64,000 nucleotides of DNA, taken from positions 7,788-71,787 of IMG/VR virus record IMGVR_UViG_3300033072_000033; one strand, 5' to 3'. The translations under genes and the position numbers were made by a program. Under the pieces are notes generated by a model, which made no database searches, was not told where the DNA came from, and saw only the letters and a list, made by a program, of their open reading frames with translations. The stretch is from a virus. Taxonomy: Duplodnaviria; Caudoviricetes. Numbering within the stretch: position 1 is the first letter of the stretch; each line of letters begins with the position of its first letter. Positions 34,483-39,003 of the stretch are shown piece by piece.

Positions 34483-35550
34483 TTGAAGATTTGTGTACTA
34501 GGCGATACTCACTTTGGGATGCGTAATGATTCAATCGTATTCCATGAGTATTATCGTAAATTTTATAATGAAGTTTTTTTCCCGTATCTGAAGGAAAACA
34601 AAATCGATCAGGTGTTCCAGTTGGGGGATCTTTTTGACCGTAGAAAATTCATCAATTTCAATTCACTTCATTTATCGCGGAAATACTTCTTTGATAAGTT
34701 TAAAGAACATGGATTGACTCTAACAACGCTACTAGGCAATCATGACATTTTCTTTCGCAACACTTTAGAAGTTAATTCGTCACAGCAATTGTTGAGTGAC
34801 TATAAGGAAATCAATATTCATGATAAGCCAGTCACTGTAGATGTTGATGGAATTCCTATTGATATTATTCCTTGGATCTGTGATGACAACCTAGAGGATG
34901 TTACAACATTCATTAAGAAAAGCAAAACACAAATCTGTTTTGGTCACTTTGAGATTTCTGGTTTTGTTATGGATAGTGGTAATGTTTGCCATGAAGGTTT
35001 GAGTAAGAAAATCTTGAGTAGGTATGACGTGGTTCTGAGTGGGCATTTTCACCATAAATCAACCGATGGTCAGATCACCTATGTCGGCACTCCTGGAGAA
35101 ATGACTTGGGGAGACTGTGATGATCCTCGTGGCTTTCATGTCTTTGATACTGAAACGCGGGAGTTGACTTTTGTTCAGAATCCATATAAGATGTTCCATA
35201 AGATTTACTATGATGATCTAGAACAAGATCATGAATTCTGGAACATCTTTAACTATGATAATCTCAAGGATTCGTATGTTAAGATTGTTGTGATGAATAA
35301 GCAGAATCCATACTTATTTGATACTCTGATTGACAACCTCCATAAAGCTGAAGCCGCTGACATTTCTATTGTTGAGGATTTTACGGATATCACAGAGGGG
35401 GTTGATGATATTATTGATCAAGCTGATGATACGATGACAACTCTGAATAAATTTATTGATGACCTATCTTTGAATGTGGAAGCTGACAAATTGAAAACTG
35501 TGATGCGTGAACTGTATATTGAATCTTTGAACGTTGGAGCTACCGAGTGA
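34483..35550 (+). CDS. gp47: Recombination nuclease gp47 (Mre11/SbcD-like)
   Basis: GDTHFG, LGDLFD, GNHD, SGHFH. Confidence 0.95.
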   Translation: MKICVLGDTHFGMRNDSIVFHEYYRKFYNEVFFPYLKENKIDQVFQLGDLFDRRKFINFNSLHLSRKYFFDKFKEHGLTLTTLLGNHDIFFRNTLEVNSSQQLLSDYKEINIHDKPVTVDVDGIPIDIIPWICDDNLEDVTTFIKKSKTQICFGHFEISGFVMDSGNVCHEGLSKKILSRYDVVLSGHFHHKSTDGQITYVGTPGEMTWGDCDDPRGFHVFDTETRELTFVQNPYKMFHKIYYDDLEQDHEFWNIFNYDNLKDSYVKIVVMNKQNPYLFDTLIDNLHKAEAADISIVEDFTDITEGVDDIIDQADDTMTTLNKFIDDLSLNVEADKLKTVMRELYIESLNVGATE

Positions 35551-37259
35551 TTTTCTTCCGCAAACTTAAATATAAGAATTTTTTGAGTACTGGTAATGTG
35601 TTCACTGAAATTCTATTGGATAAATCCCCTAGTACACTGATTATTGGAAAAAATGGTAGTGGTAAAAGTTCCATCCTTTGTTCGTTGTGCTTCGCATTAT
35701 TCAATAAGCCATTCCGCAATATTAATAAAGCTGGACTAATCAACTCTATCAATGGCAAAGATTGTGTTGTGGAACTCGAATTTGATGTTGATAATAAATC
35801 CTATAAGATCATTCGTGGCATCAAACCCAATATTTTTGAGATCTACTGTAATGGATCTCTAATCAATCAGGAAGCATCGGTAAAGGATTATCAGGAATAT
35901 CTGGAAAAATATATCCTAAAGATGAATTTTAAATCATTCACACAGATTGTTATTCTCGGATCTGCTTCGTTCGTCCCGTTCATGCAATTGTCTGCTGGGG
36001 ATCGTCGTGCTATTATCGAGGACTTACTTGACATCCAGATTTTCTCGACGATGAATTCTCTATTGAAGGAACGACTTTCTACTAACAAAGAAGCAACCAC
36101 AAGCAACAAATATCAGATCGAACTCACTTCCCAAAATTATCAGTTGCAGGAAAAACACATCAATGAACTAAAACAGAACAACGATGAGAAGATTGTCGAA
36201 TATGAAACTGAGATTCAAAACTACCTAAGAGATATTGGCTTAGTGAATATCAGTATTGAGAATTTCAGTAAGAAAGTTGAAGAACTCCAGAAATCCATCA
36301 CTGACAAGTCTATAGTTGAAGGTAAGATCAAGAAACTGAATCAACTCGAAACCCAGATTGAAACGAACATCTCTAATCTAAAGAAGGATATCCAGTTCTT
36401 CCAGAATAACGACACATGCCCCACTTGCCGTCAGAAGATTGATGAGGATAAGAGTCAAGATCAGATCAATACTAATCAAGCTAAGATCGCCGAAAGCTCT
36501 AAGGGTATTAAAGATATTGCTGATGTGATTGGGAAAGAGACGCAACGCCTTCAAGAGATTCATACAACACTAGATCAGATTCATAAGTGTCAGGTTAAGA
36601 TAGCCACTGATAATACTTCAGTCACTAATATGAATGGCTATATCACCAAACTCCAGAGACAGATTGGTGAACTTAAAAATACTAAACACAATCTTGATGC
36701 TGGGACTGAAACTTTGGATAAATTGAAAGTCAAATTAAATGAACTTGACGTGGAACATAAACGATTGATTGATGAGAAGTCTTATTATGATGCAGCCACA
36801 ATTCTTCTGAAAGATAGTGGGATTAAGACCAAAATCGTAAAGCAATATCTCCCGATCATCAATAAAGTCGTGAATAAGTATCTAACCGAAATGGACTTCT
36901 TTGTGAACTTTAATTTGGATGAATCGTTCAAGGAGACTATTAAATCAAGACACCGAGACGAATTCACATATGCGTCATTTAGTGAAGGTGAAAAGCAAAA
37001 GATTGATATTGCTCTGATGCTTACTTGGAGAACCGTGGCTAAATTGAAGAACTCCGTAAACACTAATCTACTAATTCTGGATGAAGTATTTGATAGTAGT
37101 TTAGATGCGAATAGTATTGAAAATCTTGTTAAGATTTTGAGTACATTGGAAGGCGTTAATTTGTTTGTGATTAGTCATCGCGGAGATATCCTTCAAGACA
37201 AGTTCAGATCGATGATTTCGTTCGAGAAACATAACAATTTTAGTAGGATCGCAAAATGA
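35547..37259 (+). CDS. gp46: Recombination ATPase gp46 (Rad50/SbcC-like)
   Basis: GKNGSGKS, CPTC hook, FSEGEK, LILDEVFDSSLD. Confidence 0.96.
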   Translation: MIFFRKLKYKNFLSTGNVFTEILLDKSPSTLIIGKNGSGKSSILCSLCFALFNKPFRNINKAGLINSINGKDCVVELEFDVDNKSYKIIRGIKPNIFEIYCNGSLINQEASVKDYQEYLEKYILKMNFKSFTQIVILGSASFVPFMQLSAGDRRAIIEDLLDIQIFSTMNSLLKERLSTNKEATTSNKYQIELTSQNYQLQEKHINELKQNNDEKIVEYETEIQNYLRDIGLVNISIENFSKKVEELQKSITDKSIVEGKIKKLNQLETQIETNISNLKKDIQFFQNNDTCPTCRQKIDEDKSQDQINTNQAKIAESSKGIKDIADVIGKETQRLQEIHTTLDQIHKCQVKIATDNTSVTNMNGYITKLQRQIGELKNTKHNLDAGTETLDKLKVKLNELDVEHKRLIDEKSYYDAATILLKDSGIKTKIVKQYLPIINKVVNKYLTEMDFFVNFNLDESFKETIKSRHRDEFTYASFSEGEKQKIDIALMLTWRTVAKLKNSVNTNLLILDEVFDSSLDANSIENLVKILSTLEGVNLFVISHRGDILQDKFRSMISFEKHNNFSRIAK

Positions 37260-37819
37260 ATAATGAAGATTTTTTAGTAATTGATACTGGCATTGGTCTG
37301 AAACAAGATGATAAGATTGAAGTGCTCCCTCTGTATGACGAGAACTACCATCTGCTTAAGGTTGCTATGCCAGAACATGATGTGCGAATGTTGCCTAATC
37401 CGGTGATGACTAAGTTTGCTTGTCGTCTCCAAAAAACTATGCAAGAATATAATGGTATCGGACTATCAGCCAATCAGTGTGGTGTCCAAGAGCGAATGTT
37501 TGTTATGGGTGATTTTGTCTGCATCAATCCCAAGATCGTAGGACATTCGGAATCAACTTTTAAGATGAAAGAGGGTTGTCTATCATTCCCAGGATTGTTT
37601 GTCACAGTTCCCCGATATTGTTCTGTTGATGTTGAGTTCTATGATATCAATGGACAATTGCAATCACACCACTTTGAAGGTGTTACTGCTCAATGCTTCC
37701 AACACGAACTGGATCATATGAATGGTGTAACTTTTGTGGATAATGTTGGTCCAGTGGCACTTCAAATGGCTCGTCAAAAGCAACAGAAATTGATCAAGAA
37801 AATTAAACGGAACGCTTGA
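37256..37819 (+). CDS. def: Peptide deformylase
   Basis: GIGLSANQ, EGCLS, QHELDH. Confidence 0.93.
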   Translation: MNNEDFLVIDTGIGLKQDDKIEVLPLYDENYHLLKVAMPEHDVRMLPNPVMTKFACRLQKTMQEYNGIGLSANQCGVQERMFVMGDFVCINPKIVGHSESTFKMKEGCLSFPGLFVTVPRYCSVDVEFYDINGQLQSHHFEGVTAQCFQHELDHMNGVTFVDNVGPVALQMARQKQQKLIKKIKRNA

Positions 37820-37844
37820 CAATTGAATGTTGTTGTGTTAGTAT
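37816..37844 (+). promoter_or_regulatory. Sigma70 promoter TTGACA-17-TAGTAT with extended -10 TG
   Basis: Consensus -35 at 37816-37821, TGT at 37836-37838, -10 at 37839-37844; predicted start near 37851. Confidence 0.85.
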
Positions 37845-37850
37845 TACAGA

Positions 37851-38160
37851 AATCCCGTCCTCTGGCTCTAAACAAGCTGTAAAGACGGTAAGCTTGATCC
37901 GAATCGGTGGGTTTCCCTCAAGTTACCACCAAAGCCTGTATGACGCTATACCCATAGTATAGAAAGTCTAGGCGGCAGATTCCCGTAAATATGGTACTAC
38001 GGTAGCTTGATCCGAATCGGTGACTGACCTGTAAGCGGTCACTAAGGTCTGACTTTTCTCAGGCGGCAGATCCCCGTAAATATGGTACTACGGTGCTGGT
38101 AGGTAAGCTGCCCCCAAATTCAAGGGCCGATTCACCTCTTGATAATTTGAATGTGAATCT
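37851..38160 (+). ncRNA. Candidate tandem structured RNA/leader of unknown family
   Basis: 19 nt block repeated at 37891-37909 and 38004-38022; 34 nt block (1 mismatch) at 37970-38003 and 38061-38094; stems conserved between units with compensatory changes. Confidence 0.65.
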
Positions 38161-38176
38161 ATATTATGGAGTTATT

Positions 38177-38389
38177 ATGTCAACTAAAGCAAAAATCCTG
38201 TCGTACCTGAGCAAGACTACCCGATACAATACACTGACTATTGAACAAGCACGTACCAAGTTCAATGTGAAGAACATCTCGGCACGTATCTCGGATCTGC
38301 GCAAAGATGGTCATGCAATCGTCACTGAGCAAAAGAAGCAAAATGGTCGTATGGTAAGTTTCTATCGACTCGCTACCAAGACTAAGTAA
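38177..38389 (+). CDS. Small winged-helix DNA/RNA-binding protein
   Basis: 70 aa; LTIEQARTKFNVKNISARISDLRKDGH helix-turn-helix plus wing; GGAG RBS before ATG 38177. Confidence 0.75.
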   Translation: MSTKAKILSYLSKTTRYNTLTIEQARTKFNVKNISARISDLRKDGHAIVTEQKKQNGRMVSFYRLATKTK

Positions 38390-38436
38390 ACCCTAGTCTT
38401 GGATATGTCTGGAGATATTAATATCTCCAGACATAT
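38376..38436. repeat. Two abutting inverted repeats: 9 bp stem (38376-38402) and perfect 34 bp palindrome (38403-38436)
   Basis: ccaagacta/tagtcttgg; atatgtctggagatatt/aatatctccagacatat. Confidence 0.9.
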
Positions 38437-38481: not shown

Positions 38482-39003
38482 TTGGAAATGTGTGTATATC
38501 ATAAACATCACATCATCCCAAAACATATGGGAGGGTCGGATGATAAAACTAATTTAGTTACTGTTACCATTGAAAAGCATGCCGAACTTCATAAGCAGTT
38601 ATGGGAAGACTTGGGGTTTTGGCAGGATCATGTGGCGTGGAAAATGTTATCCGGTCAAATAACCAGAAAAGAAGCAATAAAGATTGCCCAATCCGAAGGC
38701 GCTAAAAATCGAAAAAAACGTTATGGTAAAGAAAATCATTTCTACGGTAGATCGCATACTGAAGAAACGAAGAATGCGATTAGTAAAAAGAAAATGGGGA
38801 GTGTCCCACCAAATAAAGGTATGGTCGGAGCCGAAAGTAAAACTTCTAAGTTTTATGAGATAACAGATCCAGTTGGGAATGTATACATCATAAAAGGATT
38901 ATCCGAATTCTGTCGGAGGAATAACTTATCTGACGGCGCAATGAGCCAAGTTGCATTAGGAAAATTTAAACAACACAAACAATATAAATGTAGGAGATTG
39001 TGA
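38482..39003 (+). mobile_element. HNH homing endonuclease with NUMOD-type C-terminus
   Basis: HKHHIIPKHMGG.DD..NL..VT..KH..LH; NHFYGRSHTEETK; GLSEFCRRNNL. Confidence 0.8.

Follow-up and report, generated by a model that had tools for sequence, protein, structure and literature searches.

A pseudoknot conserved in the predicted leaders of HTH_39 genes of uncultured T4-like phages, preceded in one lineage by tandem structured modules

What is the role of the non-coding stretch that separates a peptide deformylase gene from a small winged-helix gene in the genome of an uncultured phage? The DNA analyzed here (64,000 nt, hereafter the window) is part of an IMG/VR virus record of 71.8 kb with a CheckV completeness of approximately 40%. 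Genes encoding a gp47-like phosphoesterase (34483–35550), a gp46-like SMC ATPase (35547–37259), and a peptide deformylase (37256–37819) precede the stretch. It is followed on the + strand by a Shine–Dalgarno sequence (ATGGAG, 38166–38171) and a gene for a 70-aa HTH_39 winged-helix protein (Pfam PF14090, E=1.5e-6), which starts with the ATG at 38177 and extends the feature to 38389. Further downstream are located, in this order, genes for an HNH-NUMOD3 endonuclease, an Anp1-like transferase, a dGTP diphosphohydrolase-like protein, gp45, and gp44. The nearest cultured phages by gp46, Methylophilales phage Melnitz and Synechococcus myophages, share only about 47–49% identity with the window in this protein, and hence we assign the window to an uncultured T4-like myovirus.

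An early sigma70-type promoter is predicted on the + strand at 37816–37844, comprising TTGACA (37816–37821), a 17-nt spacer, and an extended −10 element TGnTAGTAT that ends at 37844. It scores 10/12, with TG ahead of the −10 hexamer, and would start transcription near 37851. Two near-identical Logan contigs, L092 and L093, have the same two hexamers, with four substitutions in the spacer. The near-consensus promoter proposed in an earlier interpretation made from sequence alone (the sequence-only reading) is retained, with transcription as a prediction. The same interpretation placed about 325 nt of non-coding sequence with 2.5 repeat units behind the promoter, and diverged repeats are indeed present between the promoter and the HTH_39 gene. 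Two candidate open reading frames, 37816–37962 and 38093–38389, could be considered as coding, but a 113-nt unit deletion in L093 and 1-nt indels among the strains disrupt both by shifting the frame, and they have no Shine–Dalgarno sequence. The GC content of the region is 46–51%, vs. 33–42% in the flanks. Since no + strand terminator-like site was found between the promoter with its units and the HTH_39 gene, we infer that positions 37851–38176 constitute the 5′ untranslated leader of an early HTH_39 mRNA. All G.U pairs, as well as two pair-preserving transitions in L092, fit the + strand only, which points to + strand RNA as the folded molecule. Thus, the description of the region as promoter-driven, non-coding, and structured on the + strand is supported.

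The well-supported structured RNA of this locus is, on the comparisons that follow, an H-type pseudoknot at 38120–38159 of the + strand, which lies within the coordinates of the sequence-only reading and was absent from it. In the window, stem S1 is formed by TCAAGGG (38120–38126) and CTCTTGA (38136–38142), and stem S2 by GATTCAC (38129–38135) and GTGAATC (38153–38159); loop L1 is CC, L2 has 0 nt, and L3 has 10 nt. The structure ends 6 nt before the Shine–Dalgarno sequence. More distant HTH_39 genes were found at six loci (L089, L090, L091, L189, L190, and L191), with proteins approximately 56–80% identical. None of the six carries the repeat units, and all six leaders retain a promoter-like sequence, the pseudoknot, and the Shine–Dalgarno sequence ATGGAG. 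A pseudoknot finder, run without prior constraints on the leaders of the window and its six relatives, returned the same geometry in 7/7 cases: S1 of 6–10 bp, L1 of 2–3 nt, S2 of 6–8 bp, L2 of 0 nt (3 nt in one leader), L3 of 1–17 nt, and a distance of 6–9 nt from the pseudoknot to the Shine–Dalgarno sequence. Each leader's pseudoknot was better than 95–100% of shuffles.

Both stems vary in sequence between the lineages, with six distinct versions in the seven leaders. S1 is different in each lineage. Three lineages use G.U pairs in the pseudoknot, and these fit the + strand only. The arms of S2 are GAUUCAC/GUGAAUC in the window, GAUCCAC/GUGGAUC in L089 and L090 (which have the same sequence), GGUCGC/GUGACC in L091, GAGCAAC/GUUGCUC in L189, GGUCGCA/UGCGACC in L190, and GUGCUGC/GCGGCAC in L191. 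The leader pseudoknot is thus conserved via compensatory changes and shows covariation in homologues; the repeat units have no diverged homologue among the sequences searched. Its distribution marks it as an ancestral element common to the HTH_39 genes of related T4-like phages.

The gene neighborhood of these relatives differs from that of the window. In L089, L090, L091, L189, L190, and L191 the HTH_39 gene follows a gene for a CobS/MoxR-like AAA+ ATPase, not the deformylase gene; this ATPase has no homologue in the window, and in four loci (L089, L090, L091, and L191) it ends in IPF. Two database entries for HTH_39 proteins, P0154 (232 aa) and P0135 (106 aa), have N-terminal extensions that correspond to translated leader, pseudoknot, or upstream-gene sequence. 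These extensions are gene-calling artifacts that hide the leader.

The repeated motifs and hairpins upstream of the pseudoknot, as quoted in the sequence-only reading, were all recovered in place. A 19-mer, AGCTTGATCCGAATCGGTG, occurs at 37891 and 38004 (0.03 copies expected from shuffles), and a 34-nt block combining GGCGGCAGAT with hairpin 1 occurs at 37970 and 38061, the two copies being 97% identical. All of the following elements are on the + strand. Hairpin H1a (CCGTC/GACGG, 37855–37888) begins about 4 nt past the predicted transcript start; it is not significant alone (p=0.135), and its loop differs by a 3-nt indel in L092 and L093. The core of unit A (37891–37981) consists of the 19-mer (37891–37909), hairpin H2a (37906–37930), the triplet AAA, hairpin H3a (37934–37973), and GGCGGCAGAT (37971–37980); a possible closing helix pairs GAATC (37901–37905) with GATTC (37978–37982). 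It is followed by the first copy of hairpin H1b (CCGTA/TACGG, 37983–38002), in which every pair is invariant. The core of unit B (38004–38072), similarly, includes the 19-mer (38004–38022), H2b (38019–38043), AAG, H3b (38047–38064), and GGCGGCAGAT (38062–38071), its closing helix having an A.C mismatch (GATCC, 38069–38073). The second copy of H1b (38074–38093) and hairpin H4 (GGTAG/CTGCC, 38098–38112) complete the series. The unit lengths are 113 and 91 nt.

How strong is the structure of these units? The stems had been described as covarying, and while the hairpins are present, the covariation was overstated: about two pairs change on both sides, and most pairs are in the invariant blocks. 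RNAalifold applied to the unit alignment retains H2, H3, and H1b; one pair of hairpin 2 changes on both sides (G-C to A-U), and four further pairs change on one side only, to or from G.U. The C-G to A-U swap reported for hairpin 1 counts as two-sided only on the assumption that H1a and H1b are homologous; in the MAFFT alignment the two are not matched as homologous hairpins. When interiors were shuffled with the conserved ends fixed, H2b (p=0.03), H3a (p=0.01), and H4 (p=0.008) proved to be better than the shuffles; H1a, H1b, and H2a did not. The folding energy of the whole region is not better than that of shuffles (MFE z about −1.1), and the z-scores of single units lie between +0.1 and −1.8. 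RNAalifold also adds a 5-bp helix between GAAUC, within the 19-mer, and GAUYC, following GGCA, which is invariant and mismatched in unit B. It is possible that, with this helix closed, H2 and H3 form a three-way junction in each unit. Neither this helix nor H4 was part of the sequence-only reading.

Searches for relatives of the units were negative. Rfam 15 gave no match for the whole window at gathering thresholds, in line with the earlier statement that the units could not be assigned to any known family. With E up to 10, the segment 37700–38300 yielded only a spurious minus-strand lncRNA match (21.5 bits vs. a gathering score of 50). ARAGORN reported 0 tRNA or tmRNA genes in the window, and neither blastn of the region nor tblastn of the HTH_39 protein against phage GenBank records produced anything. 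The exact 19-mer is absent from IMG/VR and from JGI metagenomes. A two-block pattern had 0 matches in IMG/VR, and two 16-mers had 27 and 13, none of which extended past the seed. The relaxed two-block pattern matched 48 metagenome sequences, all weak against R1, a covariance model built from the units, the best of them (L147) being inside a 663-aa ORF. R1 itself recognizes only its own source units; scans of 94 related loci and of 30 related phage records in full gave no match. No similar RNA was seen upstream of two of the IMG/VR HTH_39 relatives L003–L006, namely, L003 and L004. The units are known only from the window lineage, i.e., from the window and the contigs L092 and L093.

These contigs encode the same HTH_39 protein and a deformylase 99% identical to that of the window (P0008). 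L092 carries 2.5 units; L093 carries 1.5, comprising H1a, the 19-mer, and then B-type H2 and H3, so that unit B is its sole full unit, and it differs from the window and L092 by the 113-nt deletion. This natural variant shows that the second unit is dispensable. Other differences, besides those in the promoter spacer and the H1a loop, include a change in the H2b loop, a C/T change in a linker, a C-run indel, and two transitions: A to G at 37970 in L092, which converts U-A to U.G in H3a, and G to A at 38110 in both contigs, which converts U.G to U-A in H4. No strain substitution breaks a stem, and all small changes in the leader are in loops, in linkers, or pair-preserving.

The block of the deformylase gene, the leader, and the HTH_39 gene is 98.5–100% identical between the window and L092, while identity drops to 85% in the neighboring gp46 gene, which points to a recent exchange of this block between diverged phages. 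Similarity is mosaic across 35778–38398 of the window, with gp46 85% identical to both L092 and L093. In the closest deformylase relatives after these two contigs, at 73–77% identity, a different gene directly follows and there is no leader; since this next gene differs among the phages, the position after the deformylase gene appears to be a hyperplastic hotspot. The gene in question encodes a 446-aa DruA-family protein in L095–L097 (L095 3061–4401) and a TAGT-family protein in L094 (1605–2847), and an ORF of the same size as the DruA-family gene occupies L007 2230–3570.

As the units are located between the transcription start and the conserved pseudoknot, and in one lineage only, they represent, in this lineage, a 5′ addition to a leader already in place. 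Their origin may be sought in the leader itself. The GAUUC/GAAUC pairing of the units is also the core of pseudoknot stem S2, and GAAUCGG of the 19-mer is complementary to the pseudoknot loop CCGAUUC (38127–38133), a match with a chance expectation of about 7% by our own rough estimate. The full junction block does not align significantly with the pseudoknot (p=0.16); once the H1b hairpin is taken out, the junction is collinear with the window's own pseudoknot (p=0.008), the removal being post hoc. The invariant unit blocks thus weakly resemble the pseudoknot arms, and because of this resemblance and of the complementarity we tentatively suggest that the modules arose by tandem duplication of leader or pseudoknot sequence, followed by divergence.

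The interpretation that we favor, with somewhat less than even confidence, is a cis-acting mRNA leader grown by tandem duplication. The early promoter would produce a single mRNA for the small HTH_39 protein, and the pseudoknot beside the Shine–Dalgarno sequence would most likely serve as a translational operator and/or as a 5′ structure stabilizing the mRNA. In this lineage only, the leader would have gained, at its 5′ side, one or two modules of 91–113 nt, each with H1, H2, and H3 between invariant blocks and perhaps closing as a three-way junction. The modules, if acting at all, would act in cis, either by altering mRNA stability or by rivaling or supplementing the pseudoknot. One possibility is a hairpin set about 4 nt from the 5′ end; another is the supply of sequences that duplicate the S2 arms or compete with them. 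This reading draws support from the continuity of the region with the HTH_39 gene on the + strand, from H2b, H3a, and H4 being better than interior shuffles together with the raised GC content, and from the relatives that lack the units and still keep the promoter-like sequence, the pseudoknot, and the Shine–Dalgarno sequence. Further support comes from the strains, which share the locus with 2.5 or 1.5 units and differ only by pair-preserving or loop and linker changes otherwise, from the alignment of the H1b-removed junction with the pseudoknot, and from the GAAUC/GAUYC helix found by RNAalifold. It is weakened by the folding z-score of the whole region and by the natural variant without one unit; by the full-junction alignment, significance appearing only after the post hoc removal of the hairpin; and by the closing helix, which is 5 bp long, invariant, and mismatched in unit B, as well as by the chance level of the GAAUCGG match.

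The stand-alone multi-unit RNA of the sequence-only reading, on the other hand, is not supported, be it as a riboswitch, a ribozyme array, an antitoxin, or a CRISPR mimic: no terminator-like site separates the units from the HTH_39 gene, unit number is 2.5 or 1.5 in near-identical phages, relatives of the gene have no units, and no RNA family matches. The first alternative to the leader reading is a neutral one, in which recent duplication of leader DNA, within a hyperplastic part of a T4-like genome, produced the units, the hairpins being by-products of small palindromic insertions and the unit number drifting by unequal recombination between the 19-nt and 34-nt repeats. The variation in unit number between phages with otherwise identical flanks would be expected in this case, as would the lack of units in every relative and database searched, the weak MFE z-scores, and the fact that the region after the deformylase gene is different in each relative. 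However, neutral decay would hardly leave perfectly conserved 19-nt and 34-nt blocks beside heavily diverged segments that still fold, nor does it agree with the raised GC content and with stems unbroken by any observed substitution, and we consider it unlikely.

A second alternative, which we rate as distinctly unlikely, is that the units, once excised from the leader, serve as trans-acting decoys or mimics, e.g., as an antitoxin-like or other anti-defense RNA whose dosage is tuned by the repeat number. It is suggested by the strong predicted early promoter, by the invariance of the single-stranded blocks, and by the tandem modules in 1.5–2.5 copies, which recall pseudo-ToxI of phage PhiTE with its 1.5 to 4.5–5.5 repeats (PMC3475682). 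As in pseudo-ToxI and ToxI, a promoter-driven tandem non-coding repeat is carried by a phage and its copy number differs between close phages (PMC3475682), but the units here are 91–113 nt long and have diverged hairpins, in contrast to the near-identical 36-nt repeats of ToxI and, more generally, to near-identical repeats of 34–50 nt; processing into units is hypothetical here. The adjoining gene encodes the HTH_39 protein and no toxin-like gene is present, the array has no terminator after it, and among 185,579 species-representative prokaryote genomes (GTDB) nothing similar was found except two 19-mer matches with unrelated flanks, which we attribute to chance. A ToxI-like antitoxin array in particular was rejected, as TRF reports no array, the D1 copies are only 71% identical, and the downstream 70-aa HTH_39 gene is not of the ToxN/AbiQ type, a ToxN-like gene being absent. 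A CRISPR array or repeat mimic was rejected as well: the conserved block is 53 nt long, and the segments between blocks, of unequal length (38 and about 60 nt), form pairs with the ends of the block.

Thirdly, the repeats might act as DNA, serving as iterated sites for the adjacent winged-helix protein, either autoregulatory operators or an origin-like element. The sites would be the 19-bp blocks, which hold the near-palindrome GATCC-GAATC, plus GATTC/GAATC motifs. The neighboring gene does encode a DNA-binding fold, the direct repeats are invariant, and GATYC and GAATC motifs recur across the leader. We nevertheless regard this explanation as decidedly improbable, because the G.U pairs and the wobble-preserving transitions are strand-specific, the interleaved S1 and S2 vary between lineages with G.U pairs in a manner that fits an RNA pseudoknot better than an operator, the raised GC content is the opposite of the AT richness expected of an unwinding element, and relatives of the HTH_39 protein have no such repeats.

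The locus could also represent a new phage RNA class, in which unit-sized RNAs from the early transcript would bind or titrate a host or phage protein and the pseudoknot would provide a second T4-type translational control; we hold this combination to be highly improbable. If true, the target might be, e.g., a defense effector, with the repeat number setting the dosage. Finally, the idea that the units are novel aptamers, each binding a ligand (as in a tandem riboswitch), or small ribozymes that cleave themselves is scarcely credible: the possible three-way junction, the conserved junction bases AAR and GGCA, and the tandem arrangement are suggestive, but Rfam offers no match even at E up to 10, the units occur in one phage lineage only, one of them is dispensable, the closing helix is limited to 5 bp, with a mismatch in unit B, and there is no evident expression platform. 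Tandem riboswitches, such as those for glycine or glutamine, are likewise repeated structured modules in a 5′ leader; unlike them, the units match no Rfam aptamer, have no homologues, and are variable in number and dispensable. Inspection by eye for a hammerhead-like core, T-arm or anticodon-loop mimicry, and CsrA GGA loops produced nothing that fits. In sum, the case that this locus makes for a new class of riboswitch, ribozyme, or decoy is not a strong one.

The closest analogue for the proposed operator role of the HTH_39-leader pseudoknot is the leader of T4 gene 32, in which an H-type pseudoknot serves as a translational operator 5′ of an A+U-rich stretch and the ribosome binding site (PMC3014915; PMC535899). 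Both are H-type pseudoknots in the 5′ leader of a T4-type phage mRNA. The downstream gene is different, encoding an ssDNA-binding protein in T4 and an HTH_39 winged-helix protein here, and so is the position, the distance from pseudoknot to Shine–Dalgarno sequence being 6–9 nt here, while the gene 32 pseudoknot is in the region 67 nt upstream of the start codon (PMC3014915). There is no sequence similarity to the gene 32 pseudoknot, and autoregulation by the gene's own product may be suggested here by analogy only. In a 2010 review, gene 32 was given as possibly the sole case in which a viral pseudoknot is used for translational autoregulation (PMC3014915), and a second candidate operator is therefore worth a bench test. 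The robust result of this study is a small, previously unlisted leader pseudoknot common to the HTH_39 genes of uncultured T4-like phages; on this comparison, the pseudoknot leader itself would be a new instance of an already known element type, while the modules are lineage-restricted and their function is hypothetical. Even so, the modules are a case of a phage leader growing and shrinking by whole structured units between near-identical genomes, and the natural series of 0, 1, and 2 units offers a means of probing the effect of leader structure on early gene expression.

A further known arrangement, the PeSL cassette, also combines a strong early sigma70-like promoter with stem-loops before a small accessory gene in a variable region (PMC2839356). 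PeSLs are about 100 bp long, recur many times per genome, and have the stem-loop at the promoter (PMC2839356). Here, unlike in PeSLs, the structures are downstream of the start site, and the assignment to PeSLs was rejected since neither the covariance model nor blastn-short found a second unit copy elsewhere in the 71.8-kb record, which covers about 40% of the genome.

The slot 3′ of the HTH_39 gene (window 38376–38436 and 38482–39003; L092 4179–5735; L089 738–914) is variable. In the window it is occupied by the HNH-NUMOD3 gene and in L092 by a minus-strand gene for a 518-aa DUF7487 protein, while it is empty in L089 and L091. Similarity between the window and L092 ends at 38398, within a 34-bp palindrome. 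A minus-strand promoter-like site at 38183–38156, also scoring 10/12, overlaps the HTH_39 start codon and would read antisense through the leader.
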